From Ostrea edulis (lineage: Eukaryota), in NCBI RefSeq assembly GCF_947568905.1, contig NC_079168.1:30814001-30878000 (forward strand): DNA of 64,000 nt, written 5' to 3'. Made by a program: the position numbers and the translations under genes. Position 1 is the first letter of the stretch, and each line of letters begins with the position of its first letter. The notes below the pieces were generated by a model. That model had not been told where the DNA came from and did not search any database. It saw nothing but the letters and a program-made list of their open reading frames with translations. This document shows positions 17,099 to 39,384 of this stretch, in pieces.

Positions 17099-17237
17099 GT
17101 TCTCAGGTCAGGGTCTGAAGTCGATGTGTAGAGTGAGAATGGGGGCTCTGCTTTTATACTCCCTTTTCGCAGAATATTCATAAACCGCGCTTCTAAATCG
17201 AAAACGAGGCTACCGTCGTATCCAAGTATAAACAAGT

Positions 17238-19845
17238 ATGGCGTCGACCTTAGACGGAGGCAAGAACGACAGGCATTGTTGCGTGCCGAACTGTAATGGA
17301 AATGGACGCCGCAACCCAGAGCTCTCTTTTCATCAAATCCCACAAAGATTGGAGCTTCGCAAGGCTTGGATACATGCTATTCGGAGGGATCCTGGTCCAT
17401 TATTCAGAGTATGTTTATGTAACTTTGTTCCAAATAATACGGAGAGATGACCCCCTTATATCATAGAATTAAGTAGGCCTCGAAATAGGTTGGTCCTTGC
17501 ACGTGTGTACGTCAGTGTGTGTTTAATGAAATGACTTCAAACAAGTCTTAACGGGTTATAATCTTTCTAACAGATCTGTGATCAAACAGTTGTTTGCTCA
17601 CGTCATTTTAAGAGGGACGACTTCAAATGGACCCCAGTAAGGAAGACACTCAAGAAAGAAAGTGTTCCTTCCATATTCAACTGGAAATCTGACGAAAAAG
17701 CTGCGCGACGGGAAATTTTTAAGCATCCTGTTCCAGAGAAAATGCCTAGATTTGACACTGATGAGAATAACAACAACCCGGTCTCAAATGAAAATTTAAA
17801 TTTGAATGTGGAGAGGTAATGGCATTTTAAAAATCTCTATAATTTATGTGATAGTCAATCAGAATGAATCAGGTTATATCCATAACATTATATAGGTCTA
17901 TGTGTGTGTCATTTTATTTAACAGAAGGTCTGACTAATTTTACAAGAAGCACATGTAATAATCGAAGCAATGTTTCTTTTTCTACCTTCGAATTACTATT
18001 TCTATAAACAGTTGAAAATACTAGGAGAATCAAGGCAAATATAATTTAGCAATAAGTATGATTTAAGTTTCTTCAGTGCTGCTGCATGTCATTGGGACTT
18101 TCAATGTGAAATTGGTTTTACTTATTGTTCATGAATTATTCTCAGAATGATTAATCAATTGTCAAACTAGTTTTATTCATGCTGGTTTGCAATTGTATTA
18201 AACTATTTTGAATAATTCAACTCACAACAAGATCAACTGCTGCTGGACAGTAGGATGCTGGATCATCAAGATCTTTGTGAGGTATGAAATTTTGTATTAT
18301 TCATTCAGACTTAGAAATTGTATTGAAATATTTTCACTATATTAAATGATGGTCTATAATAATAAAAAATACTGTATGTTTTGCACTTTGTTAAAGTAAC
18401 ATGCTCTATATAACTTTGAAAATCACCTGTGCTTATGTATATTTCTTCTTCTCTTAATTCATAGTATGAATGCTGTTCTTTACACCACCATGTTAATTTT
18501 GAGAAAATGATATTCTTATGTAATGATTTAATATGCATGTAATTTAAAATATCTACCAACTTCGAAAAGGTATAGAGCGTCCTCCTATAAATTTCACATT
18601 CATCAGAGATATGCATAATTTTGTAATATATAAATAAATGAATACATCGAAGTACACAAATACTTATTACTGACACAACAGAGATCCTTTATAAAAGATA
18701 GGGGGGGGGGGTGATCAGTCTGTAACTGGCTATGATGAAATTGTTTGACTAACTTTCCAATTATTTATACAGTATGGATGTGAATTATATATTGCAGCAG
18801 TATGTATGAAGAAGTGCAGCCTGAGACAAATAGGGTGAATGAGTTAGAGGATATGCTGAAGAAGAAGGAAGGGGAAATTCAAAAATTACAGCAACGACTT
18901 GAGATAGAAAGATTTGGCATTCAAAGATTTTCAAATGACAATGCATTAATTTCATTTTATACAGGTTTTGCATCCATGATCATGTTTACAACTTTTTATG
19001 AATTTATCAAACCTGGTGCTAATAGAATGACCAGTTATTATTACAGATCTTCTGACAGAATCAACCAGCACGTACTGGTGGGCAATCCGAGGAACATGTT
19101 GCTCATTGACGAATTGTTCATGTTTTTATGCCGTTTAAAATGTGGTCTTATGGAGCAGGATTTGGCTGTAAGATTTAAATGTCATTTGTCTACTGTAAGT
19201 AGGAAAATTATTACATGGGCAAATCTTTTATACTTTGCTCTTGGTAGCATAGATATCTGGCCAAGTAGAGAGCAAATAAATGAGAACATGCCTAACCAAT
19301 TCAAAAGTATGTATCCCTCTACACGGGTAATCATTGATTGTACAGAGTTAAAGACAGAGAGACCTTCATCTCTTGTTCTCAGTTCCAAGTGTTATTCGTC
19401 ATACAAAAGCTCTCACACATGGAAAGGACTTGTTGGGATTGCTCCACATGGAGCTCTGACCTTTGTATCAAGTTTGTACACAGGAAATATGTCAGATGTA
19501 GAAATTACCAAGCTTTCTGGCCTGATTGATCTCCTGGATAGGGGTGATTCAATAATGGCTGACAAAGGATTTGTTCTGAACAAGGTATTAGAGGGGACAG
19601 GTATTTCAGTTAACACGCCCCCATTCCTCCAAAGTCAAGGTCAATTTTCAAGGCAAGAAGTGGAGCAAACCCAGGTGATAGCAAAACTAAGGATACATAT
19701 TGAGAGGCATATCCGCAGAGTCAAGGAGTACCACCTTTTTGATGGTGTCATTCCCTTAAGTATGGTAGGAACAATAAATCAATTATGGACAGTGGCAAAC
19801 ATGCTAACTTTATTCAAGGGTCCTCTTGTCAAGGAATGGAAGTAA
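17238..19845 (+). CDS. THAP-domain DDE_Tnp_4 transposase (spliced)
   Basis: Exons 17238-17408 (CCVPNC..FHQIP..W) and 17574-17815 (VCSRHF..VPSIF) form the THAP domain; terminal exon about 18796-19845 has the HTH and catalytic IIDCTE, MADKGF, RIHIER motifs. Middle exon near 18230-18280 uncertain. Confidence 0.85.
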
Positions 19846-20493
19846 ATTGAAGATGAAATCAATCAGGAAAATGAGATAAATATATACAATTATCAGAATA
19901 TAAAAATTGTATCAGAATTGTACCAGAAATTAAAGTAACATATTACAAGATCTATAAATTTCATGACATGTAATTCACGACACATATTACCTGTGTGTTG
20001 GTTGTTTTATAATTAATAACAATAACTCTAGTTAATTACACAACCATATTTAGAAGTAACTTTCATTAGGAAAGTTTTTAAGCCCCCCCCCCCTCCCCCT
20101 TGCAACTAATGTTGGAGGAATATTAAATTTGTCCTGTCTATCCAAAAAATTAACCTGGCACATAATTTTAAATGGTAAGTGATAAAGCTCTCAGTCTTCA
20201 TATGTGAGAAAATTTGATTTGTTACCAAAGTTTCTGACCTCATGACCTTGAAGATTGATCTTCTTTTAAGAAAATATCTCCTGAATTATTTAAGGCATGC
20301 TTTCATATTTTGTATATAGATTTCTTATGGCAAGACTTTGCATTTAATAACATGACCGTTGACCTGGTTACTTTGGCATAAACATGTTGAAGCTGAATGG
20401 AAATAATTAGCAAATCTTGAATAGATATAGAAAATGCTACTTTAAGTAATGAAAACATTCCTTCAAATGAAAATGATCTATATCAAATATTGA

Positions 20494-23400
20494 TCAGCCT
20501 TTCAAGTAATGGTCAAAATAAAACATATCAAGCTTGTCTTTCATTTCTTGCCATCTACTTGAGTCAAATGTTATAAGCTCAAGATGAGATTCATCTGAAG
20601 TCCAAACAAACAAGTAACACTACTCTAGTCCTGTTACTGCAAGCTGCATCATAATCTGATGAAAATAGTTATGTGTCCTATTCAGTTTAAACCCATTTTC
20701 ATCCTTGTTGAGGTAAACACATTGTGATAGGGGGTTGACAGGACACTTGATTTCCAGTAAACCATAACATGGAGTAAGGGCAGGGCAATACACCTTTCTG
20801 TCTGGGCTTGCTGCCAACCAAGGTGACCATGGACTGACACATATTCCACAGGGATAAATGTTGACATTGTCATTCATCCTCTGAAAATACAGAAAGTAGT
20901 AGAACATAGTTTTAAAATATTGCTGACTCTTATATATGTTTTATTTATTTGTATGATTTTTTTTTTACATGAAATCTTTCATCAATACATTGGTGCTTTA
21001 TTCAAAACACATATCCAAAGACCTCAAATTATGACAATATTATTTATATTCAAAAGATCTTGTAAATTTTGTGTATTTATTTATAATTTATGTATTTATC
21101 AAATTGATATACATGTATAGACCTATGCATTTAGTTTTCTTTGGGTTAAATGCCTAAGGTATTTACAACTGGACATATAATAAGTGGACTAGTTATTCTA
21201 ACAAATATTTGTGCCTGCATTTATTATCAAATACATGAAAACATATATTGTAAGAGTTCTTACTGCTACAAATGCTTCAGCTGCTGTAGGCTCACATGCT
21301 ATCCCATGTCTCATATTGGCTGTCACCACAGATCTGGAAGTCCTTAGTCGCTCCACCAAGGGGTCATAGTCTATACCAAAAACAGCATTGTTTGAAAATT
21401 TGTTTTTGAAAAGAAGTTGTTCAATGTCTTTAATTTGTAGCTATTGGTCAATTAACTAAACAAGCTAAGCTAAGGCACCACTGAGGGCTACAAATTTAAG
21501 ACATACAAGAAAAATTGAACTTTACATTGTACTATATATACAATTGTTCTCTAGAATAATAATTCATGATCTTGTCTATTTCGTTGAATTAAACATGTTG
21601 TATTTTAAGTGTACATATCAAATTAAAAATGCAGAATCTTATTTGAAATGTAGTAATGTTCATTACATGTATCAAGCCGATACATTTTTCACATAATTAC
21701 CTTTTCTCCTTTTGACAATGGAACCAGCAATAGATGCCGTTATCCTATCAAGCCTAATCCTGTGCCATTTGGGATCCTGGGACTGTAACTGAGTCAGAGA
21801 TTCTATCTCTGAAGCCTCATCAGTAGTGACACTTAATGAGTCAGTTTTCAAGTGTTTTGTTTCAGATAACACAGTAGATATATTGTTAATCATCACATTT
21901 TGAGATGGTAATTTAGGAAAGCCATCAGCATCCAATATATTCAGAATTAAATTACTGTTCATTTTTTGCTGCACTGCAAGTGGACTCCCCTTGGGGAATT
22001 TGCCAAACTTCGTGTCTACAACTTTCTCCTGACGTTCTAAATTTACCACGCTCAAAAGCATACAGGTGTCGTCAACTTCTTCAAGGTTATCACACAATTC
22101 CTGTAAAGGTAGTTCGGACACATTTTCAATAGGGTTGTATAATGTTGTTCGAATTCCTCTAGGTGGCACATATGGGTTCCTCATATCAAAACCTAACACT
22201 CGAACGTTGTCAATGGAGCTCCCTGCTACCTTTTCCCCTCTTGGTACATGCCATGTTTGTGGAAGTGAGGTTTTTGCTACATCTGTTGGAATAACCAGCA
22301 TTCCAGTTGTTTTCATATGAGCAAGAGTATACAAAAGACCTGTAATGTGACCACATGCACCAGAGGTTCCAATTGGACAGGAGCAACTGCTGTCATCTCT
22401 CTCAAATATTGGTCCTGATTTTAGATGTATCTGTAAAGACAAATTTAAAAACATTAAGTAAATTAATGTAAATTTAAATATTTTAAAACAAGTATAGTTG
22501 GATTTAGGTAATAATTTAATAGTCAATTCATTTATTGTACAGTGTTTAACAACAAGTGGTCCATGGGCCACATTGCTCACCTTGGCCCATATTTAAAGAT
22601 TTTCCCTATAAATTTGTATGTAAATCTTTGTTTCCCTATTGTGCCTGCACCCTAACTCTGGGTGCCGTATGTTAACAAACTTGAATCTACACTATGTCAG
22701 GAAGCTTTTATGTAAATGTTAACTTTTCTGGCCCACTGGTTCTTGAGAAGAAGACTTTTAAAGATTTTCCCAATATCCCAACAGGAAAAAATTTGATCCC
22801 CAATTGTGACCCCACCCTACCCCCAGGGGTCATGATTTTAACAAATTTGAATTTCCACTATGTCAGGAAGCTTTCATGTAAATTTCTGCTTTATTCTGGC
22901 TCAGTGGTTCTTGAGAAGACCTTACCCTAGTTTTGCATTTTTGTGATTATCTCCCCTTTGAAGGGGGTATGGCCTTTCATTTGAACAAACTGGAATCTCC
23001 TTCACCCAATGATGATTTGTTTCAAGTTTGGTTGAAATTGGCCCGTTGGTTCCGGAGAAGCAGTCGTTAGTATGAAAATTTTACAGACAGACGACAGACA
23101 ACAGACAATCAGAAAAGCTCATTTAAGCTTTCAGCTCAGGTGAGCTAAAAATGAATTATACAACTTCAATGCAGTGATCAATACATTGGTACAGATGTTG
23201 ATATGAATGGGTTCATCTGGAGGGAGGAACCCCCCACATGCATGTATGGGTGAGTGACCACCCTATCAAGTTGGACTCAATCCCAAATTTCAGAGGGGAA
23301 ACCCGAGTTCTAAGGAAGCATATGCTTTAACCAATAATTTTTGTATACTGGTATTTGTGACTATAACTTACAGGTTAAGTAGTACATATTAGATGGTATC

Positions 23401-24982
23401 TCAAAAATGTAAATAGAATAATTAATCATTATGATACATATGACTGATAAAACATCATAAACAATCAAATTGAATATTACCTCAATTGTGTGTGGAGACT
23501 CATTTTTCTTCTGTGATCGGTAGGATCTAGCTTTAACAACACAGCCATCATCCAATTTATACACTACAATAAGAAATGTTTGATTAAAATTTTATTACAA
23601 GTGTATATATATATATATATATATATAACACATATACTATATTTAACAATTACATTATGACTACATGATAATGATACACATGTATACCTTAAATACACAT
23701 GTTAAGAATTTCTATATTGACATTGGTCTAGAGTTGGCTCATACAATGTAACAATACTTATTGAAAATGCACTGTATAAGAAGGATGATATATGGGGAGT
23801 TGTTGTTCTGAACACAGGGGGTACCAAGGGACAGTGCCTGCATGTGTCATGTCGACTAGTCTTGTACCCTAAGTATTCGAAACAGCTTATCTATAGTATA
23901 CAATTTTAACAATTGAACATTATAACTACATGATACAATATACATATGTATACCATGATATATGCATGTTATGGTTACATGTATGATGTAATGTCTCATG
24001 TGGTTTACATTGTCTAAGCACATGCTACTAGTAATACAGTGTATTATGTATGAACCATGAGAAACCATGTTTGCACATATGCACTGTTTGTAGTTTCTTC
24101 ATGTGATTTCAATATAATGTTATCTGTAGGTGTTGCGGTGAAATCACACATCAAATGCAAAGTTGAAACTTTACGGCACAAGTTAATTGCATGTAATACG
24201 TTAAGTATTAATACCATGTTCAAAATGTCTCATGTTATGAACATTGTTTGTAGCTCATAATACTAAATTACAATGCACTTTTTTTTTCTTCTTCTCATAA
24301 ACATTACATACTGAAATCTGTCAAATGCATTATGATTTAAACATATCTTATTGAGAATATATATGTATTAATAATAGTGATGTATGCCCAGGAGGGCCCT
24401 AATTTGGAATAAATAAATCATATGATATATATATGCAGGGGCTATAAATTGATAAAATGATGCTAGTTTGTCATAAATTAACTCATTGAAACTACTAGAT
24501 TATTTATCATTCAACAAAAATATATGGTTTTTCAGCAGGCTGGGATGCTATAGGCCTAAAACTTTTTTTTCTGAGGGAGGGGAGGGGGGGGGGGGTACTT
24601 GGACATGTATACGATCGATCAGTTTTACCAACAATCATCATATTTAATTCATATAACTAATTATTATGTAAGATCATCTCTTCAGTAGACATCTTTGTTA
24701 CATGCTGATATGGTGTAAGTTACAGCCACAAAACGATTCAAGATCGATCAGTTGATAGTATCTGTCAAACTGATCAGCTGATAGACGATTTGACCTACCT
24801 CTGATATCCGAGATGTATTTCTCGCTGAAATATTTGTATCCCTTGGAAACTTCTTTGCATCCTTCACTCTTGTTTAAAGTTTTTATTGTTTCTTCAACAA
24901 AACCGAAGGTAATGAGGGGGACAATACTGAGATCTCGCGTTGCGCAACCAACCGACTTCGTACATTCCGCTAAATCCGACAT
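20494..24982 (-). pseudogene. SWIM zinc finger plus YqaJ (lambda-type) exonuclease gene of the ISL2EU element, with one nonsense codon
   Basis: Exons 24799-24982, 23481-23563, 21701-22430, 21264-21370, 20494-20880. SWIM CSCPIG..ACGH; YqaJ WHRIR..RITAS, LAASPDR, LLEIKCP, YFHQIMMQL. TAG at 20620-20622 falls where GLEW is expected and the frame continues CYLFVW...YLKG to a stop at 20494. Confidence 0.85.
22551..23151 (+). mobile_element. HINE inserted in an intron of the YqaJ gene
   Basis: AACAAGTGGTCCATGGGCCACATTGCTCACC ... AGCTCAGGTGAGCTAAAAA with 166-bp-type units. Confidence 0.85.
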
Positions 24983-25065
24983 GTTTGTTGTGCGTCGAAA
25001 CCGACGGTAGCCTCGTTTTCGATGCGGTATGCATATTTATGAGCATCTCATTAAGAAAGGAAACC

Positions 25066-25271
25066 GGTTTTTCCCCAGTGGTGGCTCAGTGCCAGCTGGC
25101 ATGGTGCCAATGGGTTTTTCCCAGGGCCTGCTGGCTCAGTGCCAAATGGTTCTCAGTGTCTACTGGCACAGTGCCAATGGGTTTTTCCCCAGTGCTGGCT
25201 CAGTGCCAAATGGTTCTCAGTGTCTACTGACACAGTGCCAATGGGTTTTTCCCAGTGCTGGCACGGTGCCA
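25066..25271. promoter_or_regulatory. Array of NFI-type (TGGC-N5-GCCA) and Rel/kB-type (GGGTTTTTCCC) motifs at the Polinton left end
   Basis: TGGC-N5-GCCA at 25082, 25097, 25132, 25164, 25196, 25259 (near-match at 25228); GGGTTTTTCCC at 25112, 25179, 25243. Confidence 0.6.
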
Positions 25272-25372
25272 GGTAGTGCACTTATTGCACTGATTGGGGC
25301 TTGGGGGGTTTGTGTGTCACTCATATTTGTTTTAAAGTAGCTCTAAAAAGGGCTGTGCATGAAGTTTTTATT

Positions 25373-25876
25373 TTAAAAATGGCCGGCTTCATACGCAGGT
25401 TCTTCTATATACACGTGTAAGTCATGATCTTCGGATATAATGTGCTGTACTAATTGTCGAGCTCTTCTCCCAGGGAAACGTATCTCTTCGACGGTTTCCC
25501 ACATCCAGTCTGCATCCCAAAACAATCCCCATACACTTCTTCGGTGACGTGGTTTCTCCAGTCGAATAAATCCCGATACTTTTTGAGTGCCGTTCAATAA
25601 CGTGTAAAACTGGTAAATCATGTACTGTATGAGGGGGGAATTTTTCAGGTACATGTCACTTAAACGCGACCAAATATCCTCCACTGTTTCATGTGACCGC
25701 AATACATAGTCAAAACACCAATTTTTAGATCGGCCCCAGCGTAATCGATGGCGACATCTCTGTACTAAATTGTCCCAGATCTCCATCTCGTCTACATAAT
25801 CTTCTACTATGGTTAAATTCTCCACTTGTTGTATTCCCTGGCGGCGTCTCGCTCTTAAAACTCTCCGTGTATCCAT
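25373..25876 (-). CDS. Polinton accessory protein resembling a catalytically dead CRESS-virus Rep (HUH) domain
   Basis: SKNWCFDY..(about 25 aa)..YMIYQFYTLLNGTQKVSGFIRLEKPR..V..LF..A.W parallels the Rep pattern WCFT...YLIYQ.E...GT.HLQG(F/Y)..F.KP; the HxQ and YxxK motifs are absent. Confidence 0.5.
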   Translation of the reverse strand: MDTRRVLRARRRQGIQQVENLTIVEDYVDEMEIWDNLVQRCRHRLRWGRSKNWCFDYVLRSHETVEDIWSRLSDMYLKNSPLIQYMIYQFYTLLNGTQKVSGFIRLEKPRHRRSVWGLFWDADWMWETVEEIRFPGRRARQLVQHIISEDHDLHVYIEEPAYEAGHF

Positions 25877-26013
25877 GACTGAAGGTCAGACAAGAATGAC
25901 TGTAGAAACCAGCTGACGTACAGGTGCTTGATCATGTGGTGCAGGTGCTTGATCACGTGATGCATAACCTTTACCTATAAATACAGGTGTTTTCTGAACG
26001 TTCGTTATTCACT

Positions 26014-26346
26014 ATGGGCGGCAGTGCTACTACGAGAATGGATGGATATAGCTATGTACTACAATGTATGAACGTGGCCTTACATGACCCTCTCATTCAA
26101 AATGCTCGTCAATTTGTACAAGAGATGTCACCGGAGGTCAGAAATGTACATAGTTTTCAACGGATTGCTGATTCATTAGCGGAGAATACCAATACGGGAC
26201 GTTTACTCATGATTTATTTGTATGCTGAGGAATTGAAACAGAACCTTCCAGACCAGATGAGTGACATTGATCGGATCTTACGCGATTGTCTACAAAAAGG
26301 ATTCGTGGAACTGATTCGTATGAAAGGAATGGCTGTCCTGTTATAA
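26014..26346 (+). CDS. Bcl-2-like protein 1 (Polinton)
   Basis: SFQRIADSLAENTNTGRLLMIYLYAEEL aligns by eye with BH1 (F..V..ELF.DG.NWGRIV.F...L); LQKGFVELIRMKG sits at BH2 spacing; TATAAATA at about 25974. Confidence 0.7.
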   Translation: MGGSATTRMDGYSYVLQCMNVALHDPLIQNARQFVQEMSPEVRNVHSFQRIADSLAENTNTGRLLMIYLYAEELKQNLPDQMSDIDRILRDCLQKGFVELIRMKGMAVLL

Positions 26347-26382
26347 AACAAGAACGTTTTGGAATTTTTTCATTTGATCATC

Positions 26383-26739
26383 ATGGCTGAATGGGACAAC
26401 AACAATTTTCTTACCGCTGTATTACAGTATTTCAAGGACTACAAAGAATCGGTGAACAACGCTCGTAGCGCTGCATTACAGTGTATCAAGGACTGGAAAG
26501 AAAAACAGCCGTTGAGATATAAATTCGCCATGAAGTTGTTGATCTTTTGGGAATTTCCTATGACCTTATATGAATATTCCGGCGTTTGCAAGCATATAGC
26601 CGACAACCTGAACAGAGAGTCTGGATTGATCATGATTTATACCATGGAGCAAGAATTTAGACGACGGGAACCTGAGAAGACTGGGGCGATTGTAGCGATT
26701 ACCGATCACTGGCTGGAAAAGGTGTATAAAAAAACCTAA
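26383..26739 (+). CDS. Bcl-2-like paralog 2 (divergent)
   Basis: EYSGVCKHIADNLNRESGLIMIYTMEQEF aligns with the BH1-like segment of paralog 1; all-helical, similar size. Confidence 0.5.
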   Translation: MAEWDNNNFLTAVLQYFKDYKESVNNARSAALQCIKDWKEKQPLRYKFAMKLLIFWEFPMTLYEYSGVCKHIADNLNRESGLIMIYTMEQEFRRREPEKTGAIVAITDHWLEKVYKKT

Positions 26740-26767
26740 CCGTTTTCTTTTCCTTTATTCCTGGAGG

Positions 26768-27073
26768 ATGGCCAGCAGTGACCACATCACAGAGAAAGCG
26801 ATAGCTTATGTATTGGATTATCTCACAGACATTCATTCTTGGCAGTTTGAATTTGTGTTACACTATCTGCGAGAAGAATTATTTCCCATCAGCTTAAAGG
26901 AGTATCCATGTCTCTGTCAGCATTTGATCGAGAACCGGATCACCCCGCAAGCCTTAGTACTGATTCATTTAATGGGCCAGGAATTGAAACGAATTCGACC
27001 CACAGACAGAGCAGAAATCGAGAAAATCAGACTACGATGTCTTCGAGAGATGTACGTCAAGTTAAACGTGTGA
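26768..27073 (+). CDS. Bcl-2-like paralog 3 (divergent)
   Basis: FPISLKEYPCLCQHLIENRITPQALVLIHLMGQEL matches paralog 2 FPMTLYEYSGVCKHIADNLNRESGLIMIYTMEQEF. Confidence 0.5.
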   Translation: MASSDHITEKAIAYVLDYLTDIHSWQFEFVLHYLREELFPISLKEYPCLCQHLIENRITPQALVLIHLMGQELKRIRPTDRAEIEKIRLRCLREMYVKLNV

Positions 27074-27252
27074 CCTTTAATCTGGAACGGAATCAAGTGT
27101 ATTGGCTACCTGAAGAAGATCGAACCAGTCCTTGGATGACCATGGCCGTGGATCGATGTCGATTTCAAACTAGGATTCGAGCCATGGAACAGATCTTGGA
27201 GCCTATATTGAATGACTTTTTACAAAAAACTGTTTTTGAATTGATATTGTGA
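27037..27252 (+). CDS. 71-aa PP1 regulatory subunit mimic, GADD34/ICP34.5/DP71L family
   Basis: RVxF motif KRVTF followed by R.SPW...AVDRCRFQTRI..MEQILEPIL, matching the GADD34 C-terminal R.GPW...ARDR.RF.RRI...E..L.P.L; AATAAA at about 27260. Confidence 0.85.
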   Translation: MSSRDVRQVKRVTFNLERNQVYWLPEEDRTSPWMTMAVDRCRFQTRIRAMEQILEPILNDFLQKTVFELIL

Positions 27253-27810
27253 TATGGTGAATAAAAATAGAGTCACCAGTTCTGTGTTTGTTGAATCTTA
27301 CAAAGGAGGGTATATAATAAGGAGATGAGGAAGTCTAGGCTGAAATCAAGATAGAAATCCGATTCTATACTTTGATTTCTATCTCTGAGGATGAATTGGA
27401 TATTTCTACAGGTGTACACCCCTGAGAAATAAATAGTTTAAACCCGCTAGGAGAAAATTTTACCTCGTCTCGACTCTTTGGCGGGATGATCCTGAATTCA
27501 TTTCAGGGTGTATGAGCATAAAATGCATAGGATTAGATGCAGCCCGGTGAAAACTAGGCGTTGGCTTGAACACCGGGGAGAAAACGAGTCCTCGACATGA
27601 ATAAACGAGGAAAAACTCTCTACTCGAAAGCACAAATCCGCCATTTTGGACGTCCACCATCATGGCGTTCAAACTGGACAGGGATGTTTTCAACGACGTC
27701 CGTGCTGGAGTCGTTTTAAACCAGCGCAACGTCAAATTCCAGCATTCCGTTCTAGGAACCAGCGACTTGTAAAGTCAAAGAAGAAGAAAAGAAGTAAGAA
27801 GAAGAAGAAG

Positions 27811-28593
27811 ATGGCAGGCGCTAGTTATGATTTTCAAGGAGGGTTTGACTCACGTTTCCGACTTGTAGTCATTGGCGAGAAGAAAGAAGGGGATACCTGG
27901 GTGCAGTCTAGTATTACAGAACTGGGGGTGTTTACACCCCCAGATTTGACCCAAGTCATAGTTAACCGGGCGGTCGATCGAGCTCGAAAGAGGTATGGCG
28001 CCGAGGGAGGAGGACCATTCCGTAGCACCTTTACTAGGATGCGGGACTTGGCCACAGTAGCTGCGACAGCGCCACCGCCACCGCCTCCGTCCTCAGCATC
28101 CCACACCGTGCCGCCACCCAGACCAGCGACGCCGCCTAGCCCTAGGTTGTCCAGGACAGTGTCGGCCTTCCTGCCACCCCCACCACTACCGCTAGCGCCA
28201 CCCCCACCACTACAGCTATCGCCACCATCACCACCACCTATGCTAGAGTACACTCCGGTGTCAAGTCCAGAGGTTTCCCCGAGGTCGCCCTCGCCCCAGA
28301 GCCGCGCCAGGAGCAGGTCGCCCAGCCGGAGGACCCCGCCACCCAGACCCCCGCCGCCCAGAGTCATCAATTGCCCGATCACCAACAGAACCATTAGGAT
28401 TCCGCCATGGGCCGTAAGAGTGCGGGACCGGCTGATGAAATGCCCCATCTGTTGGTTGGACGACCGGCATTCCGGGATCAAGTGCCGGGGGTGTGGGCAG
28501 CGAGTAGTATGCTGCGATTGCCTCGAAAGGAATGAGAACGGGCGGTATACAAGAGGAAGGTGTCCGCATTGCCGGCATGAGGGACCCCATTAA
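27811..28593 (+). CDS. Proline/SR-rich protein with C-terminal RING-type finger
   Basis: CPIC..CRGC..CCDC..CPHC; central poly-Pro and RSRS tract; ATG at 27811 downstream of a promoter cassette. Confidence 0.7.
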   Translation: MAGASYDFQGGFDSRFRLVVIGEKKEGDTWVQSSITELGVFTPPDLTQVIVNRAVDRARKRYGAEGGGPFRSTFTRMRDLATVAATAPPPPPPSSASHTVPPPRPATPPSPRLSRTVSAFLPPPPLPLAPPPPLQLSPPSPPPMLEYTPVSSPEVSPRSPSPQSRARSRSPSRRTPPPRPPPPRVINCPITNRTIRIPPWAVRVRDRLMKCPICWLDDRHSGIKCRGCGQRVVCCDCLERNENGRYTRGRCPHCRHEGPH

Positions 28594-28777
28594 AGAACAG
28601 GGAGACCAAACGGCCCTTTTCAGGGCCACCAACTTTTTTTGAAAAGACACTTTTTATTGCAAAAATCAAGAAACACACAAGTTTTTTTTTTTTTAAAGTT
28701 TTATTAACACAAGTCACATAGTAGGCAGAATAAAGTTTTTTTTTACAAGTAATAGCTAGAATAAAGCTATAATAAAG

Positions 28778-29275
28778 TTACATTTTCTTGACAATGTAAA
28801 CATGTTTATGATACTGATAAGCAAAGTCACAAATCCATTGTCTATAATGAGTCCAATTGCCTCCGGCTAATCCACATCCAATACGATAAGGAAACGCTAA
28901 AGTCTGGTAAGACAAAGTGCCTAATTCCTGTAAACATTGTTGAAACCAAAGTTCACGTTGTTCGGGGGTATCGGCATACAGGGGTAAGCGTTGAGTGCCT
29001 CTCCCGTAATCCCATTGCGCTAACAAACAGATCACATCAGGATGAGTAGAATGAGGCATAATACACACAGTACCCGGTATTCCTCGATCCGCTTCTATAG
29101 CTAAATTTCTCCGTCCTAAAGGTTGTCGGGTCGCATACAGATTAGCCCAAGGAAATCGGTCGGCAATACGTTGACTTAATCCATGAGGTTTCACCGTTAA
29201 ACAGTTACATTGTTGTACAATAGCATCCACCCAAGGTAGAGATAATACATCTCCTCGTAGATCCGTCACCGACAT
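28778..29275 (-). CDS. Macrodomain protein (ADP-ribose binding/hydrolase, TARG1/Poa1-like)
   Basis: GDVL..DAIVQQCNC..HGLSQRIADRFP ... LAFPYRIGCGLAGGNW are macrodomain signatures. Confidence 0.85.
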   Translation of the reverse strand: MSVTDLRGDVLSLPWVDAIVQQCNCLTVKPHGLSQRIADRFPWANLYATRQPLGRRNLAIEADRGIPGTVCIMPHSTHPDVICLLAQWDYGRGTQRLPLYADTPEQRELWFQQCLQELGTLSYQTLAFPYRIGCGLAGGNWTHYRQWICDFAYQYHKHVYIVKKM

Positions 29276-29667
29276 GCTGGTTGACAGGTCTCACAGGTAC
29301 ACGTTGACCAGGGTTCTTGACTGTAAGGACAATGTTGAAACAGCCGGGGATCAAACTTTCTCTGAGTCCAGCGCTCTCTAAACTCCTGCAAGATCTCACA
29401 GGTACAGTCCTTATGCGCTATTTCTTCTTCAGGGGTGATGGTACAATGCTGCGGACACTTACACTCTAGCCAGGGTTCTCTAGTGTGACTACAACATTTA
29501 TAGACAAAGGGATAATACGTCAGCTCTGCCAATCTCTCTATCCACTTCTGTTTGACCAGGATGTTTTCTTTTTTATAATGAAAACAGCCACAAGTTAACC
29601 AATGTCCTCGGCAATACCCACACACTAGTACATCTTTCTCATCATCCGCGTACCGTTCAAACGACAT
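29266..29667 (-). CDS. Cys-rich orphan with three C-x(5-6)-W-x2-CxC repeats
   Basis: CGYCRGHWLTCGC, CCSHTREPWLECKC, HCPYSQEPWSTCTC; TATA at about 29695-29703. Confidence 0.65.
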   Translation of the reverse strand: MSFERYADDEKDVLVCGYCRGHWLTCGCFHYKKENILVKQKWIERLAELTYYPFVYKCCSHTREPWLECKCPQHCTITPEEEIAHKDCTCEILQEFRERWTQRKFDPRLFQHCPYSQEPWSTCTCETCQPACR

Positions 29668-29852
29668 GATTGAGAAAAATGGTAACAAGTGACCTATTTA
29701 TATAGTGTTTTTTGATGAGTCATCAACATGACGTCCGCCATCTTTGACTGAGGTAGGGGATGTTTTCAAGGACGTCCGCGCTCTCGCCTTTTTAAACGAG
29801 CGCAACGTCAAAATCTGGCATTCCGATTTTTTAAGGAACCAGAGAAGTAGAT

Positions 29853-30146
29853 ATGAGTCGTAGAGTAGGACCAGACCCTACAGTGAATGACTATTTTTTC
29901 AAATGGGAGGAGGATTGGGACCGAGAGATTGCCCCGCCGGCCTCACGGGAGGCTCTTCCCCCACCGCCCATGAGCCAGGATCTGCCCCCGCCAGAGGAAA
30001 ACTGGGACGCAGAGTTGGAAGTGGTGCAGCGGCCTCCGGGGAGAGTGTTTTTTAAACACGGGTTGCCTGTTTTTGTGTTTGACCACCAACAACCCCCGGA
30101 GGAGCAGAAAAAGAAGAGAAGAAAGAGGAAGAAGAACAGACAGTGA
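29853..30146 (+). CDS. 97-aa orphan with two EExWDxE motifs and a basic NLS-like tail
   Basis: EEDWDREI and EENWDAEL; KKKRRKRKK; upstream promoter cassette shared with the RING gene. Confidence 0.6.
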   Translation: MSRRVGPDPTVNDYFFKWEEDWDREIAPPASREALPPPPMSQDLPPPEENWDAELEVVQRPPGRVFFKHGLPVFVFDHQQPPEEQKKKRRKRKKNRQ

Positions 30147-30375
30147 GGGGGGACAGAGAAGAGAAGAAGAGAAGGAGAAGAGAGAGAAGAAGAAGAAGAA
30201 GAAGAGAAAAGACCAAGAACAGAGAGAGAGAGAAAGAAAACAGCCCTTTTCAGGGCTACCCATTCTTTTTGAAAAGACATGGTTGATTACAATGACAAGA
30301 AAAAACAAACCCAGAAGATTTTTCCAACGTTTTATTAAACTCCAACTATGAACAATAACAATACAATAACATAGT

Positions 30376-30873
30376 TTACAATACATTCAGTCTTTGACAT
30401 TGACAAGTTTGTCCTTGATGGGTTCTCGGTTTTCGGAAGGTCTCTTTAAACCAATCAGCCACAAAACGATCGCGTTGTAAGGCCGTGCCTTTCCAGGGAA
30501 GTAACCATTCTTGTACGGTGCTTCTATGTCGATGGCGTTGATGTAAAAAATACACACAGTATTGTCCACAGACATCCGTATTCAAATCTTGATAACAATG
30601 GGTGTTATGAATCCAAGTCTCTCCGTGGCGTTGAATAAAGTCTTGGATGTCTTTATGGCTGGGAGGTAATCCGTAAGAATCAAAATATTCGACGGTAGGG
30701 CTACTCAAATACAAACAGACTCAATGCGCTCCAGGGCGATCGTGAGGGTCTGTATTCACCACGATGGCTTTGTGATGAGGTAACAGCTCAGGTATGACAT
30801 CTCGAGGATACACACCTGCAAACGCCGGTCCTAAATCTCGTTGTAAAACATCTCTCAATTGCTGAGTATCCAT
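30376..30873 (-). pseudogene. Polinton adenain-like cysteine protease with a nonsense mutation
   Basis: MDTQQL...VVNTDPHDRPGAH*VCLY..EYFDSYG..CYQ..VCGQYC; TGA at 30721-30723 replaces the Trp after the catalytic His. Confidence 0.9.
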
Positions 30874-30888
30874 CTCTCTCTCTCTCTC

Positions 30889-32292
30889 TTAGTAATCGAT
30901 GCTGACTTCTCGTTGTTTGTTGATTTCTAGCAGATTGTCGAACACGGCATACACCACACAGTTTAAGGTCCTGGCCACGTTGGCGGCAAATTGCACTTCC
31001 ACTCTCAAGTTCCCAGTCTGTATGAGCTGAAATTTATCCGTCTGGGCTTCTTGATCTTTCGTGAAATCCACACACCAGAGGGTGTAACCGTTTTTATACT
31101 CTTCCAGGGTAATGTCCGGAGCCCAGTCCTGGCCTAATTTTCCCAAGCCTTTGTACAGACTCAAATACGATCTCAGGTACTGATCGTCGGTGAAATTAGG
31201 TTCCAAAGGTCGGGTTTCCATCATTTCTCCATTGATACTGATTTCTAATTTCTTGACTTTCTCATTTTGGAAATGAAAGGGGTTTCTGGTATTATCCCCA
31301 TTAAAAGCCGCATTGTCCACAAAGCCCAACACGACCAGTTTAGGCATCTGTCCTTGAAACAGATGATCGGTGATTTTAGATTGGGTGCCACTAGGAATGG
31401 TGAAGGTTTTCACTTCCACTCGTCTCAATGGATATTTCGCCGTTTGAGTACTCAGTTGCTGATTGATGAGATTAATGATACTCGGCACAGGTTTGACTTT
31501 CCTCACCCACAAGATCATACTTTGAATGACCACTTTCCCACTACTCCCGGCAGCGGTCATCATGTAGAACTGGGGTCGAGCGCGATTGAATCTGAGACGG
31601 ACATCCACGCCATTAGGGAGACATTTCTCTTGCTCAAACAAATCCAGATGTAATCGATCCATCAACACGATCTCCTTACTGTCTGTAATCTTCTCGTGAC
31701 GTTTTCTCAACCCTACATTCTTGGAATCATCCGGATACTCGGGAGTCGGGATGACGGCCGCGATGTTGACTTTGTTAGACACTACTGCAAATTCCACAGG
31801 AGTTTGAGTCAGAGCTTCTAATTTGACCTCATCCATATGTCCTGCCGTATCTTTTTCCCACAAGCTACAGGCTCTCATCTGGGTTTCCAGAGTCTTGGGT
31901 GCATAAGACAACAATTTCTCCAGATACGCTTTGTAGGGATAAGTATCCGTCCCCGGGGTAATGACTTTTCCATTGAGACTGACATCGATTTCACTGAACA
32001 AGGAATGGAGAATGTTATTCACGGGGGTCGAGGTCGAATTGCCTCCTGCGAGATTCGTTCCATTGGCTTTCGTGAATTTACATACCATCTGGAGATAAGT
32101 TTGGGATAAATCCAGATATTCATCTCCTTGTCCTTTGATTTCAAATTCAATCGGAGCCGTATCCGAGTTGAGGGTACTGGAAATGGGGTAATATTCCATC
32201 CATTTCGAATCTTCTAAAGTGACGTTGGTCGGGGGCACTTTAAACAGTTCTAAACTGTCGGTGCCACAAGCGCAAGATTCTCTGTGCATCAT
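30889..32292 (-). CDS. Polinton major capsid protein (double jelly-roll)
   Basis: 467 aa open frame; ELFKVPPT...PIEFEI...YLDLSQTYL...[17 protein letters not shown]...YPYKAYLE typical of Maverick MCPs. Confidence 0.92.
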
Positions 32293-32371
32293 ATTGGAAC
32301 GATGTGTTACTCAGCGTGAACTGGCATCAAATGTGTTCTGGTCTCCTTCTCACCCCCTTTTTATAAGGTTC

Positions 32372-33052
32372 TCAGTCGAAAATATCCAGAGAGCGTTTTG
32401 GCTTACCCCTTTTCACTAGCTTCCTACCTCCCTTCCTAGATCGCTTCCTAGGTCTCTTATGAGGCCCTCCCCGAGCTAAGATACGTTGTTTTCTTTTAAC
32501 AAATCCTTTTCCTTCCTGTATTCCCACCTGTTTTCCCGCCTGTTTTCTTTTGAGGGTCGTGGTTCCAGGCTTCCTGAGTATTCCTGTGCGCGCTTTTCTT
32601 CCTCGTTTGGATGGGGCTTTTCGAGACCTTCGCCTACGAGCATACCCTGCTGTCTCTTTCAGGGCTTGGGCACCGTGTGTCTTGAGAGCGTCTTTGAGTG
32701 ATCGTTTATTATCTAACACATCCATCCCTGTTTTAGCAGCAGCCTTTAAGGCACTTTTAGCCCCCGATTTGAGTAAATCGGTGAAAAATCCTTTTCCCTT
32801 CTGCTTTTCAGATTCTGGATCATATTCTTCTGTTGGATGGATTCTACGTCGTCTCCTCTGATAAGAGCGATAAGGGCGGTCGTAATCATAATATCTCTCT
32901 TGATAGACAGGACGCTGTTGTTGTTGTTGCTGTTGTGCGGGGGCTCCACCTAATAATCCGCTGATCAGGGGACCCGCCACTTTGCTAGCTATTCCCAGCA
33001 GGGCTCCAAGCCCGTGACCCTGCTGCCGTATTAAACCTTTATGGTAGTGCAT
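32372..33052 (-). CDS. Basic core/virion protein with QxGxG motifs
   Basis: RQQGHGLG, KQKGKGFF, IQEGKGFV; Arg/Lys-rich; lies directly upstream of MCP. Confidence 0.75.
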   Translation of the reverse strand: MHYHKGLIRQQGHGLGALLGIASKVAGPLISGLLGGAPAQQQQQQQRPVYQERYYDYDRPYRSYQRRRRRIHPTEEYDPESEKQKGKGFFTDLLKSGAKSALKAAAKTGMDVLDNKRSLKDALKTHGAQALKETAGYARRRRSRKAPSKRGRKARTGILRKPGTTTLKRKQAGKQVGIQEGKGFVKRKQRILARGGPHKRPRKRSRKGGRKLVKRGKPKRSLDIFD

Positions 33053-33079
33053 CTTGATGTAAATGAACTTCGTTAGGGG

Positions 33080-33223
33080 TTACACCCGCTTTTTATACTT
33101 TTTACGCCGTCTCTTTCTCTTCTTTCCTTGGCCCGCTTGACCCGCAATGGCATTGGCAATCCATGGAATGAGAAACCAGATTCCGTGTCCTTTCTGGCGT
33201 CTGACTCCTCGATGGTACTTCAT
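33080..33223 (-). CDS. 47-aa basic core peptide (below the ORF-track cutoff)
   Basis: MKYHRGVRRQKGHGIWFLIPWIANAIAGQAGQGKKRKRRRKKYKKRV; its N-terminus parallels MHYHKGLIRQQGHG of the next gene. Confidence 0.7.
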   Translation of the reverse strand: MKYHRGVRRQKGHGIWFLIPWIANAIAGQAGQGKKRKRRRKKYKKRV

Positions 33224-33226
33224 CTT

Positions 33227-34212
33227 TCAATACACTTTGCGGAAATGAAGTTTGACTAAGGACCGCCCATTTAAAAAGCCCATAGGACGCCCTAAAGAAT
33301 TCATGATGTGTACCTCAATGGTATCGAAATATTTCTTACTCAGTTTCAAATATTCGGCTCGAATCGGTTCCCAACGGGCTTGTTGTCGATCGTCGTATTG
33401 AGCCGTACAGGGGACGACTCTCAATAATTTCAATTTGTTGGTGCCCACCACTTGAGGATCCACAATGTCACAATACACATACATGGCTTTCAGATTGTCG
33501 TAGACATCCATGGTCGTGTTCCCCAAGTAATTCACGTTGATCCATTTCGTCATGGTTTCATGGCCCAGGATCATTTTGTCACTATCCAGACCTAGCTTGT
33601 ACGCTAAGGGCGTAGGGAAACGAATGCACATGGGGGTGGCTCTCAGTGTTCTCCCATTAAAGTGATACTCGACACGATCGTACTCGGGGTGATACACTAA
33701 GATCTGGTTGTTCCCCTCTTCGTTAGGATCCCCTAACTCGCTCCATACTTTCCACAGGGTTCTCCTTAAGGCTGCGTTGATTTCATTGATTAACGCCAAA
33801 GGTTGTGTATAAGCTCCGGGTCGGAAGTGAATGCGAATGATATCGAAGGGAAATAAACTATCCCCTCCCTCAAAGAGATGGGACCATGGCGTCAGATGCC
33901 AGGGGACCACCACCACACACCTGGCCATCGTGACTTTGCCCATATTCTCTGTCTTAAATCTTTCCCATTTATAAGTGTTGGGATCTTGGACATGTTTCGT
34001 ATACGGATCTGGAATGAGAACGTCCACATAAGTCTCGCTATCCGATACGTTTTGTAAGTTGGCCGAGTACATCATCCGACTTCCCATTCTCCATCCGTTA
34101 AGTCCATGGTGTGTGGCAATAACGTTTTAAATTGAGCAGTCGTATTCGTCGGAAACGATTCCATCGACCCATCACTCAACAGAGTCATGTAAAACCCTTC
34201 TCCTCCAGCCAT
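33227..34212 (-). pseudogene. Polinton minor capsid protein (penton-like) with a frameshift
   Basis: MAGGEGFYMTLLSDGS...LPHTMDL.DGEWEVG then a frameshift near 34075 into ..MMYSA...MYVYCDIVDPQVVG...LLRVV...LHFRK. Confidence 0.85.
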
Positions 34213-34329
34213 GATGTCTTAAATGAGACCCTGTCTCTGTTTCCTTCTCTATTTATACACAACACCGTTTTGTTTTTTCACAATTTTTATTTGAAACAAC
34301 ATACAACATGACAATACATTCAATTCAAT

Positions 34330-34779
34330 TCATTCTTCTTGATCGCGGCCACCACCGCACATCAACGCATCCGAGTCTGGTAACGTCAGGATTCGTCTCG
34401 GGACTAAGCGTCGTCGCATCACCAGATAGTGTCGGGTTCCCCAGCAATCGGCTACATCATAACCTCCATTGATCATGTCTTTAAAATGGTGGAGACAAGC
34501 TTTCACGTTGTCGTACCAAGGACTATCATTTAAGGTCCAATCGGATTCGTCTTGTCGTCCCATCAATCCCCAGAAGGCTTTGACTTTCCAGCGAAACTCT
34601 TGATATTTAGTCTTTCTGATAAATGGCACCCAACCATCAGGAATCACGATCCGTTTGTACAAGTACACAGGATGCGTCGACGTTTTGTGTTGTTTACAAT
34701 GCATCAAACACATCTGCTTATCCCAGAACCAGGTACTTTTCTTCCCCTCTTGTTTCCAGGCGTACTGTGGCTTAGCCAT
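34330..34779 (-). CDS. 149-aa Polinton orphan protein
   Basis: Open frame with own TATA (about 34814-34820) and downstream AATAAA; no recognisable motif. Confidence 0.6.
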   Translation of the reverse strand: MAKPQYAWKQEGKKSTWFWDKQMCLMHCKQHKTSTHPVYLYKRIVIPDGWVPFIRKTKYQEFRWKVKAFWGLMGRQDESDWTLNDSPWYDNVKACLHHFKDMINGGYDVADCWGTRHYLVMRRRLVPRRILTLPDSDALMCGGGRDQEE

Positions 34780-35019
34780 GGTGAACTGATCTCTCAGGTG
34801 AAGGGGACTCCTGTTTTATAGGAGGTGCATTCATTTGAGGACTAGGCATGACGTAGCCCACCAAAGAACTTAAGGTCACCATCCAAAAATCGCGATTGGG
34901 ATCGCGTATGGCTAACATGACTACCGAGGTGATAATGATGGTTCAACAGAGGAATAATTGTGCAAAATACACAATTTCACTCCGGGGGACTTTTTCACCC
35001 AAGAAAGTCCACTGGGTGG

Positions 35020-36105
35020 TCATGACAGAATGAGATCCGCTTGCGGAATCCATGAATCAAAACTGGGAGGATATCCTTTCCAACGCACTTTGACTTCTGA
35101 AATGACTTTTTTTCCCACACGCCGCTTTTTATACCCTAAGATTTCTTCCACTTCATAGACATCATCGTCTTTAATCACTTGTTGTAATTCCTTCTCGTAA
35201 AAGGTTCCTTCTAATTCTTCCCCGTGATCATCTTGAATGCGATAGACGTTTCGTCCTGGCACTTTTCTAGAGATGGTAAACAGTTCTTTGGTCCAATTCG
35301 GTAAATATCCTTTTTCAAACGTACGTTTGGCTTTACTAATGCGTACACGATCCCCCACTTGCAAGCGACTCGTGGTATCGGCACTCTGTTTTCCATACAA
35401 GGTTTTCCATACGGTCAAGACATTCTTGGCATTGACTTGAGCAGGAGCTCGCCGGATACTGCGATGATAGGTATGATTGTAACCATACACCAGATCGGCC
35501 AAGACATCGACATACCGTCGTGTTTTATGGCCTGTAAAATACCGCCACATGCGTGCTTTCAGCGTGCATTGAAAACGTTCCACAATACTGGCTTTGGTTT
35601 CGGCATTACGGGTCGTAAAGAAATGAATGGATTTGAAGGCTTGACGAAATTCTTTATTGGTAAATTCTTTTCCTTGATCGGACTGAATGCGCACGGGGCG
35701 ACGTCCCTCTCGAAAAATCCGTCGTAAGCCTCGTATCATTTCTTTCCCCGTTTTCTGTTTTAAAGGCACGACCCAGGCATATTTAGACAGCACGTCAATG
35801 GCACATAATAAAAACGTATACCCATTATTGTCTTGTTTCAAGCTGGAGACATCGGCTAAATCTAATTGCCATTGTTCATCCATATCCGTCACTCGTGTTT
35901 GTCGTCGCTTGAATTTCCTCCGTATCGGTTTATGCAAGGTATAGGTATCTTGAGCTTTCACCCATTCTCGAATTTGAGACAGGGTAATCTTGTGTCCTAA
36001 TTGACGCACTTGACGATACAACGCCTGGACTCCCCCATAACCTGTCTTGGGATCGTAATACAGTCGCTGTAAGATCTGTTCTGGTTTCATGGTAGATTTA
36101 ACCAT
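35020..36105 (-). CDS. Retroviral-like integrase with C-terminal chromodomain
   Basis: WQLDLAD, IQSDQGKEF, ASIVERF DDE triad; YEVEEIL..VRWKGY..FDSWIP chromodomain. Confidence 0.95.
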   Translation of the reverse strand: MVKSTMKPEQILQRLYYDPKTGYGGVQALYRQVRQLGHKITLSQIREWVKAQDTYTLHKPIRRKFKRRQTRVTDMDEQWQLDLADVSSLKQDNNGYTFLLCAIDVLSKYAWVVPLKQKTGKEMIRGLRRIFREGRRPVRIQSDQGKEFTNKEFRQAFKSIHFFTTRNAETKASIVERFQCTLKARMWRYFTGHKTRRYVDVLADLVYGYNHTYHRSIRRAPAQVNAKNVLTVWKTLYGKQSADTTSRLQVGDRVRISKAKRTFEKGYLPNWTKELFTISRKVPGRNVYRIQDDHGEELEGTFYEKELQQVIKDDDVYEVEEILGYKKRRVGKKVISEVKVRWKGYPPSFDSWIPQADLILS

Positions 36106-36851
36106 TTTCCGATGTCACGGGCCGTCTTTCTACCAGCATCTCTGATCGGTTTAGGGGTTAGACGTTGCGGTGTTTCATAGAACGATTGATCAAATCCCGT
36201 GAGCTCTTGAAATCCACTCTCCTCTTCCTCTAGAGGTCTAGGCGTACTGATTTTCCCTGGTTTGTCCATGGCTTTTATAACATCCCGATTGCTCACATAT
36301 CCTTTGGGAGCATGAGTCTCTTTTAACGCTTGAGCAAATTCCTCTAATCCCGCGGGGGGATCACGATGTCTTAAGGGTCTTTGTCGCTGGGTTTCGCTCA
36401 TTAAATCCACAATATTGGAATCGGGAACCCTGCGTCCTCTATAGCTGATTCCTCCTTCTTTATTCCAAGTCACCACTTTGGATTTCTTGAGATGATCGAG
36501 TAATAAACCTGCTTTCTTTTGACCCGGTTTATTGACGCTTTTGATAATCTGTTCCTCCAAGTCATCGGGTGCTGAGGCGGCTGAGGGTGGTGAGGCGGCA
36601 CTGGCTGCACTGGTTGGGGAGGGCAGAGTCGCTGTGGTGGGATGTCGAGCTTGTTGTAAATATTGACGATAGCGATGAAGTTGATGACCGTACAACCCCA
36701 CTTTTTCTTTCTCGGTTAAATCATCTCGATGTTCAATCTCATCCAAATCACTGCGTAAACCAATAGTCGAGGTAAATTCGGGAGGTTTAGGTAATTTGCC
36801 TTTTAATTCGTTGAGCATCGCTTCCGGTACCAACACCATTTTTCGACTCAT
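36087..36851 (-). CDS. Conserved Polinton protein of unknown function
   Basis: MSRKMVLVP...KAGLLLDHLK..VTWNKEG.ISYRG..VPDSNIVDLM...PAGLEEF..AL pattern seen in Maverick core-block genes. Confidence 0.75.
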   Translation of the reverse strand: MSRKMVLVPEAMLNELKGKLPKPPEFTSTIGLRSDLDEIEHRDDLTEKEKVGLYGHQLHRYRQYLQQARHPTTATLPSPTSAASAASPPSAASAPDDLEEQIIKSVNKPGQKKAGLLLDHLKKSKVVTWNKEGGISYRGRRVPDSNIVDLMSETQRQRPLRHRDPPAGLEEFAQALKETHAPKGYVSNRDVIKAMDKPGKISTPRPLEEEESGFQELTGFDQSFYETPQRLTPKPIRDAGRKTARDIGKWLNLP

Positions 36852-37177: not shown

Positions 37178-37217
37178 GGTAATGAAGGGTGGGGCACCTT
37201 CCCCCTCCTTTTTATAC

Positions 37218-38090: not shown

Positions 38091-38139
38091 GGTGAAGACT
38101 GTCTTTCAAATGATACACCTGCCCATGATGTGACATTAT

Positions 38140-38778: not shown

Positions 38779-38819
38779 CTTGATAAATGACACAAGTTCA
38801 GGAAAATCATATCTATTTA

Positions 38820-39347: not shown

Positions 39348-39384
39348 TTTGCCGACTGATGGTTTTCTCTAGCATGTCCTTTTT

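Follow-up and report, generated by a model that had tools for sequence, protein, structure and literature searches.

A small gene in a Polinton of the oyster Ostrea edulis encodes a core of the PPP1R15/GADD34 type, and the most likely function of its product, judged from the motifs that it carries, is the recruitment of protein phosphatase 1 (PP1) to phosphorylated eIF2α. The gene lies in the window, by which is meant the whole 64,000-nt stretch of contig NC_079168.1 that was analysed (features in Table 1), and it belongs to the fixed gene complement of a Polinton family with more than 100 copies in the genome. We consider it quite probable that the core directs PP1 to eIF2α mainly as part of a 110–120-residue overprinted protein, the synthesis of which would begin by leaky scanning on the mRNA of an overlapped gene, orf101.

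Table 1. Features of the Polinton and adjoining DNA, numbered from the first nucleotide of the window.
Feature	Position	Strand	Basis or remark
Left part of the same Polinton, with zinc-knuckle ORF 16310-17098	16112..17158		Split off by insertion; left terminal repeat missing
Inserted cut-and-paste transposon, DDE_Tnp_4 ORF 18802-19845; inverted repeats 17197-17243 / 24977-25023	17159..25059		Pfam and repeats
Polinton main body; right terminal repeat 43738-43837	25060..43837		Comparison with sister copies
TATAAA ahead of cassette	25976..25981	+	Sequence
orf110, paralog of orf101	26014..26346	+	Pfam Bcl-2 at E 0.032, a weak match under the cut-off
orf118, paralog of orf101, without overlap	26383..26739	+	Sequence comparison
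orf101, five-helix, probably Bcl-2-like; 3′ half carries overlapping frame	26768..27073	+	Model, pLDDT 87
Long (114-aa) PPP1R15/GADD34-type ORF, overlapping orf101 in its -1 frame along the first 55 codons	26908..27252	+	Likely main product
Short (71-aa) form	27037..27252	+	ATG subfamily-specific, present in 35/88 copies
RVxF PP1-docking motif KRVTF (residues 10-14)	27064..27078	+	Encloses orf101 stop codon 27071-27073
eIF2α-binding motif region R29-I47	27121..27177	+	Ungapped alignment to CReP 4v0x
L54-x3-L58, equivalent of DP71L L57/L61 (LSAVL)	27196..27210	+	Alignment to 9nb9
AATAAA/ATTAAA, likely shared poly(A) signal	27260..27265	+	Sequence; sole one within 25900-27300
Adenain-like protease	30379..30873	-	In-frame stop in window copy
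Probable major capsid protein	30889..32292	-	Without Pfam match; each of the three Polinton families here has homologs
rve integrase with chromodomain	35020..36105	-	Pfam rve and Chromo
A32-type packaging ATPase (Pox_A32)	38140..38778	-	Pfam
IAP (BIR and RING)	38820..39347	-	Pfam
Protein-primed DNA polymerase B (DNA_pol_B_2)	39385..43458	-	In-frame stop in window copy

The PPP1R15-type core

The short ORF comprises 71 codons from ATG to TGA and is nested within the 114-codon ORF. The initial annotation had described an RVxF motif followed by an eIF2α-type motif in this 71-aa ORF, a description borne out by the motifs and by matches to CReP and DP71L. In the numbering of the short form, the series R29-x3-W33...D39-R40-x-R42-F43-x2-R46-I47 and then L54-x3-L58 all lie C-terminal of KRVTF. 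The search against the Pfam family PP1c_bdg (PF10488) that had been proposed as a check returned 33.3 bits for the ORF of the window (E 5e-8; curated cut-off 26.1), and representatives of subfamilies B and C scored 32.7 and 35.2 bits against the same cut-off. With phmmer against the PDB, the CReP entries 4v0x (E 1.4e-6) and 4v0u (E 1.7e-6) were matched without a gap and DP71L (9nb9; E 1.1e-5) with one gap. In the ungapped alignment V12, F14, R29, W33, F43 and I47 fall on CReP V641, F643, R658, W662, F672 and I676, the roles of which are described in the accessible part of a review (PMC10743859); mutant data for L57 and L61 of DP71L are given in the accessible part of PMC5346070.

Conservation was followed in 88 family copies, consisting of the 30 best matches and a spread of lower ones, after 20 loci belonging to other families or representing duplicates had been dropped. 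All 88 keep F14, D39, R42 and R46; K10, R29 and F43 are kept in 87, W33, R40 and I47 in 86, V12 in 85, L54 in 84 and L58 in 83, and KCVTF replaces KRVTF in 49. The eIF2α-binding consensus Rx[Gnl]x1-2Wxxx[Arlv]x[Dn][Rg]xRFxx[Rlvk][Ivc] (Rojas et al., 2015, as quoted in the accessible part of PMC5346070) is matched everywhere except at its third position, which is S in 88/88 copies against the quoted G, N or L. A second deviation lies before the tryptophan, where residue P32 is I in 80 of the 88. On this pattern of matches, the motif residues of the ORF are evidently not there by chance.

GADD34 (616-620) and CReP (696-700) require a short C-terminal helix to recruit G-actin; in the Polinton protein the tail beyond L58 varies among subfamilies. 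A single-sequence model of the 114-aa form has no secondary structure over residues 1–60 (pLDDT ~50) and a helix at 75–113 that runs on to the C-terminal end; the ESM Atlas gave clusters of PF10488 at 0.92 with low recognition, which is weak evidence. The phylogeny against host and viral homologs that had been proposed was run as a protein tree (57 rows by 64 columns, with 9 starred branches among 54) and is too weak to fix origins; the p of 2e-8 obtained in a one-clade test is to be taken as a hint only.

The Polinton and its copies in the genome

That the ORF belongs to a Polinton, as the initial annotation held, was confirmed by the polymerase, the integrase with its chromodomain, the packaging ATPase and the terminal repeat. 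Three sister copies are 97–98% identical to the window over 25060-27066 and their left ends match the right terminal repeat of the window; with this right end, the left ends of four sister copies agree at 96–100%. The element is split by a transposon of 7.9 kb. In a sister copy the protease matches Peptidase_C5 at E 2.5e-4, just under cut-off. Capsid labels for a 467-aa and a 286-aa ORF, neither of which has a Pfam match, are our presumption. So are the labels of two ORFs, likewise without Pfam match, which we take to be candidate host-modulating genes: a macrodomain-like ORF at 28778-29275 (-) and a proline-rich ORF at 27811-28593 (+) ending in a RING-like cysteine cluster. Degenerate repeat arrays in inverted orientation occupy sub-terminal positions within the terminal repeat near both ends of the element (25066-25274 and 43399-43513), and a DIRS-like retroelement with reverse transcriptase, RNase H and tyrosine recombinase lies immediately to the right of the Polinton (45128-48552, -).

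In a search of the genome, 150 of 190 candidates were scored and all 150 matched. Among the matches listed, the family ATPase is found 8–26 kb downstream (median 11.3 kb) of 120/139, where 139 is the number of matches listed less 11 that belong to a second family, and 120 of the 135 ATPase loci listed carry a PPP1R15-type gene. The copies are mosaic, which points to recombination. Between the three subfamilies, dN/dS over 48 core codons is 0.18, 0.21 and 0.16, with a Fisher p of ~3e-5 for both subfamily pairs so tested; by these codon comparisons the core is under purifying selection across subfamilies. The damage elsewhere in the window copy, where stops interrupt the polymerase and protease genes, would agree with a dead remnant of a host gene that is carried along without function for the element. 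This reading is largely refuted by the purifying selection, by the presence of a stop inside the match in only 5 of the 150 matches and by the same type of gene in two further Polinton families, and the probability left to it is minimal. As a caution for annotation, more than 100 PF10488 matches in such genomes represent genes of elements and not paralogs of host PPP1R15.

Overlap with a probably Bcl-2-like gene

When a model of orf101 was compared with known structures (VIA-align), members of the Bcl-2 family made up nine of the top 12 rows, with 95–100 residues aligned. The best match was ASFV A179L (Z 7.6, rmsd 3.3, 100 residues aligned), a Z below 8 not being decisive for helical bundles, and Foldseek returned no match for the model at E<=0.001 (E>1). 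We take orf101 to be probably Bcl-2-like. The region 26014-27073 holds a tandem trio of probably Bcl-2-like paralogs, to which many copies add a fourth between orf118 and orf101; the N-terminus of orf110 carries what we take to be a possible myristoylation motif.

Further TATAAA sequences occur at 26342 and 26725, each ~40 nt before the next ATG (of orf118 and orf101), and a TATA box precedes orf101 in only 12 of 64 orf101 sequences. In 87/88 copies an AATAAA lies no more than 150 nt from the L58 codon. Read contigs were drawn from four runs, three guessed to be RNA and one probably DNA; two of the contigs are unspliced across orf101 and the PPP1R15-type gene (26548-27251 and 26788-27228) and, as they may represent DNA, are neutral. 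A single contig at window position 27122 (run X2; depth ~4) begins with what we take to be a template-switch adapter, which would point to a cDNA library. A candidate splice acceptor before orf101, consisting of a branch-like motif and a pyrimidine tract, was rejected, as it sits just behind the TATA box and no joint was found.

Of 64 distinct orf101 orthologs, 62 keep the long frame free of stops across their last 55 codons, compared with 1 of 154 non-overlapping paralogs; the frame is open as well in two further orf101 sequences in which the search pattern had missed the motif. Stop codons in the second frame are therefore avoided beyond what the orf101 protein forces, with the reservation that the copies are related and recombining, so that 62/64 amounts to about three independent lineages. 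Synonymous recoding of seven representatives (range 0.002–0.06) kept the frame open in 0.2–1% of trials for six representatives of subfamilies B and C and in 6% for that of the window, whose own lineage gives the weakest value. Since the orf101 frame has paralogs, it would be the older of the two and the leader frame the newcomer. The overlap would be a clear example of overprinting, for which the paralogs serve as built-in controls, and the leader of the 110–120-residue product would come from the 3′ half of orf101, read a second time.

Start site and product

An ATG at least 50 codons upstream of the core (~54 codons before the RVxF valine) is present in 80 of the 88 copies; 47 copies have this far ATG only, two the near ATG only and six neither. 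The minimal 71-aa protein of the earlier view is not supported as the general product, the near ATG being found in only 35/88 copies and its site coding for Ile in 11 of 13 public proteins that cluster with a 92% identical relative. The same annotation had described the ORF as hidden inside a longer one: the nesting stands, and the longer ORF, which was dismissed there, is probably the real one, the upstream ATG and the open frame being conserved. The next AUG downstream of the orf101 start is the far ATG in 35/37 sequences of subfamilies B and C, a position that fits leaky scanning. Against the long form, the ATG at 26908 in the window is in a weak context and is preceded by at least one AUG, including another weak one, and the far ATGs of subfamily A and of B/C are different codons. 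The dN/dS of the leader is 0.6–2.1, a value distorted by the overlap, and gives no sign of amino-acid constraint of its own; together with the model, the leader is read as a disordered spacer that would give access to a start codon. In sum, the protein is likely to be made in the 110–120-aa overprinted form, and the subfamily of the window may produce the 71-aa form in addition.

Two other routes to the product were weighed. The function might be the same and the product the minimal 71-aa protein, or a short form arising from an internal promoter, a splice or a non-AUG start. The near ATG at 27037 has A at -3 and so a better start context than 26908 in the window, the version in Polintons of a second family is free-standing, 74 aa long and equipped with a TATA and an ATG of its own, and many public homologs measure 55–85 aa. 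A short product is nevertheless judged unlikely, as the near ATG is missing from 53/88 copies and from the 11 close public relatives just mentioned, no TATA box was found within 80 nt upstream of it, and the open upstream frame would be left unexplained. A ribosomal -1 frameshift could instead fuse orf101 to the PP1-binding core in one Bcl-2-like/GADD34 protein: the frames stand in a -1 relation, the open frame extends 19–30 codons above the upstream ATG, and in P0060, a public protein, an orf101-like part shares its frame with the core. The in-frame ATG kept in 80/88 copies, the retention of the long frame without an intact orf101 in the herpes-like copies described below, the lack of a slippery heptamer to the eye in the window copy and the possibility that P0060 is itself a frameshifted copy make such a fusion very improbable.

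Proposed function

In the preferred reading, that of a PP1-recruiting protein with an overprinted leader, the core is predicted to dock host PP1 via KRVTF, and the docked enzyme would be directed to phospho-eIF2α, with the result that the mRNAs of the element would still be translated while a stress kinase is active. DP71L comprises hardly anything beyond this core and yet counters all four eIF2α kinases according to the accessible part of bioRxiv 2025.02.28.640897; the Polinton protein may be expected to do likewise with host PP1, which is present. The eIF2α- and actin-side residues that were checked are kept in 83–88 of the 88 Polinton copies and are under purifying selection, which argues against a protein that binds PP1 as a decoy, or retargets it elsewhere, and leaves phospho-eIF2α at its level. 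Such a decoy, which we hold to be distinctly unlikely, would be in keeping with DP71L mutants that retain PP1 binding, lack the downstream residues and lower translation (accessible part of PMC5346070), with the two deviating positions of the eIF2α motif, and with the herpes-like copies, in which KRVTF is kept and the D-R-x-R-F core lost, so that drift of this kind does occur in the lineage. The initial annotation supposed that translation shut-off of the PKR/PERK/GCN2 type is countered in the mollusc host; oyster PERK has reportedly been linked to antiviral responses.

Other Polinton families

The host PPP1R15 gene (L032), located on C6, has an upstream exon of 571 codons and, apart from it, a last exon that scores 40.9 bits on PF10488. 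Two Polinton families besides that of the window carry related genes. The second family (11 matches listed) encodes the free-standing 74-aa version, which adjoins PC4 and CARD genes (Pfam CARD and PC4 confirmed), and one of its relatives is inserted in a copy of the first family (L048/L106). The third is a broken Polinton whose PPP1R15-like gene adjoins a CARD-like gene, an integrase and a capsid homolog. This third version groups with the host exon in the protein tree (94/88, unstarred), a hint of a separate capture. Gene order in the two further families (L038/L103/L104, L106, L107-L110; L031/L105) differs from that of the first, and CARD-type genes lie beside the PPP1R15-like gene.

Herpes-like elements and likely gene transfer

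Four diverged copies of the PPP1R15-type gene are located on C8, outside Polintons, in gene-dense DNA. A herpes-type terminase gene lies ~22 kb from one of them and C8 holds four terminase loci, the Pfam matches being above cut-off (PF02499, 57.9 bits; PF02500, 42.4 bits); most ORFs in the Pfam scan of the C8 region had no match. A retrotransposon and non-coding stretches inside one C8 cluster suggest an integrated element. The C8 copies encode 106–107 aa, with a leader of the subfamily-A type (66–73% DNA identity, compared with 36–48% to B/C) and the common A/B core (identity up to 79%), and the closest C8–Polinton pair differs at 3 synonymous positions in 48 codons as against 17 between Polinton subfamilies. 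Two of the copies were checked: in both, stops fill the orf101 frame and the long frame is still open.

With the second family as outgroup, the C8 copies nest within the first (99/100 and 95/89), and a tree with the first family alone as a clade was rejected (AU p 0.014), in a test that used 28 selected rows and 150 columns, named the group after the first tree had been seen and ignored recombination. The Polinton-like DNA shared with the C8 copies is limited to ~240–300 bases and one gene neighbourhood is common to three of the copies, so that a fresh Polinton insertion does not account for them. They keep KRVTF, lose part or all of D-R-x-R-F and score 13–15 bits on PF10488; a test for positive selection in them was not significant (p 0.20). 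A transfer of the gene from Polinton to herpesvirus is likely, and the nested copies would be one of the rare records that show the direction of such gene flow, here from a Polinton into a large DNA virus.

The herpes-like endogenous regions of C8 (~52.23-52.38 Mb and 25.24-25.62 Mb; G000; L112-L131, L040, L047, L139) are large and gene-dense, with the four terminase loci (two of them 112 kb apart), a kinase, a helicase-like gene, BIR genes and many membrane proteins, and an LTR retrotransposon and duplicated blocks lie within one of the clusters. A cysteine-rich 133-aa ORF of the Polinton (29266-29667, -) has a 51% identical homolog in a herpes-like region (L122:3664-3939), possibly a second shared gene or else a Polinton fragment. 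Repeated acidic E-D/N-W-D motifs are found both in a small Polinton ORF (29853-30146, +) and in several herpes-like ORFs (L040, L047).

Relation to known systems

A close parallel is ASFV, whose DP71L (short form, 9nb9) likewise consists of RVxF, the eIF2α motif and LxxxL in that order and little else, encoded in a genome that also has a Bcl-2 homolog (A179L, the top fold match of orf101). ASFV has an IAP as well, so that its DP71L, A179L and IAP would cover the same three functions as the Polinton gene with its probably Bcl-2-like neighbours and IAP. Unlike DP71L, the gene described here sits in an integrating Polinton of 18–20 kb, and its protein likely has a 50-residue overprinted leader, a linker one residue longer (the CReP spacing) and S/I for G/P before the tryptophan; the two proteins do not group in the protein tree, which is weak. 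With cellular PPP1R15A and PPP1R15B (GADD34 and CReP) the PF10488 core is shared, to the point of the ungapped alignment with CReP. The Polinton gene is only 31% identical to the host PPP1R15 exon, and its single frame lacks the long N-terminal part that the upstream exon gives the host gene.

Viral captures of the same module are reported for ASFV, HSV, avipoxviruses and baculoviruses in the accessible parts of the literature, including PMC5346070. HSV ICP34.5, canarypox CNPV231 and the baculovirus PPP1R15A homologs, known here from those accounts, belong to large non-integrating viruses, unlike the Polinton. Adintoviruses and polintoviruses share Bcl2 and IAP homologs (Starrett et al., 2021, accessible part of PMC8502044), and neither the main text and readable supplement of that study nor the main text of a coral polintovirus paper, as far as accessible, contains a phosphatase term of this kind (or, in the former, an eIF2 term). 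A literature search of openly available papers, the 391-homolog table of bioRxiv 2025.02.28.640897 lying beyond its scope, found no report of a Polinton PPP1R15. The module is well known; the Polinton as its carrier, the overlapping architecture and the likely onward transfer are, as far as that search extends, what is new.

We lean towards a broader reading in which animal Polintons would be a widespread, unreported reservoir of stress antagonists, with at least three families and at least two captures in this genome. Overprinting of a Bcl-2-like gene would couple anti-death and anti-shut-off functions on one mRNA, and the gene would then have passed to an endogenous herpes-like virus, where the leader is a fossil of the overlap and the eIF2α motif drifts. 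If this is true, Polintons face antiviral translation control as true viruses do and are a source of genes for large DNA viruses. A small, directly testable gene bears on the debate over the nature of animal Polintons, which may be transposons or else viruses that pass through an infectious phase; a conserved antagonist of eIF2α shut-off beside Bcl-2-like and IAP genes would correspond to the needs of a productive viral cycle.

Scans for the context of homologs gave no match in metagenome_contigs and, in viral_contigs, a lone 12-residue match in a phage-like contig that was rejected as unrelated. Protein searches yielded sets of 68 and 138 short public homologs, among which several of P0014, P0015, P0029, P0036, P0066, P0030, P0049 and P0069 have long low-complexity leaders resembling second-frame readings. 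Some of these homologs are joined to parts that we take to be macrodomain-like or nuclease-like, and the leaders and joined parts suggest that overlaps and Polinton-type settings exist elsewhere.
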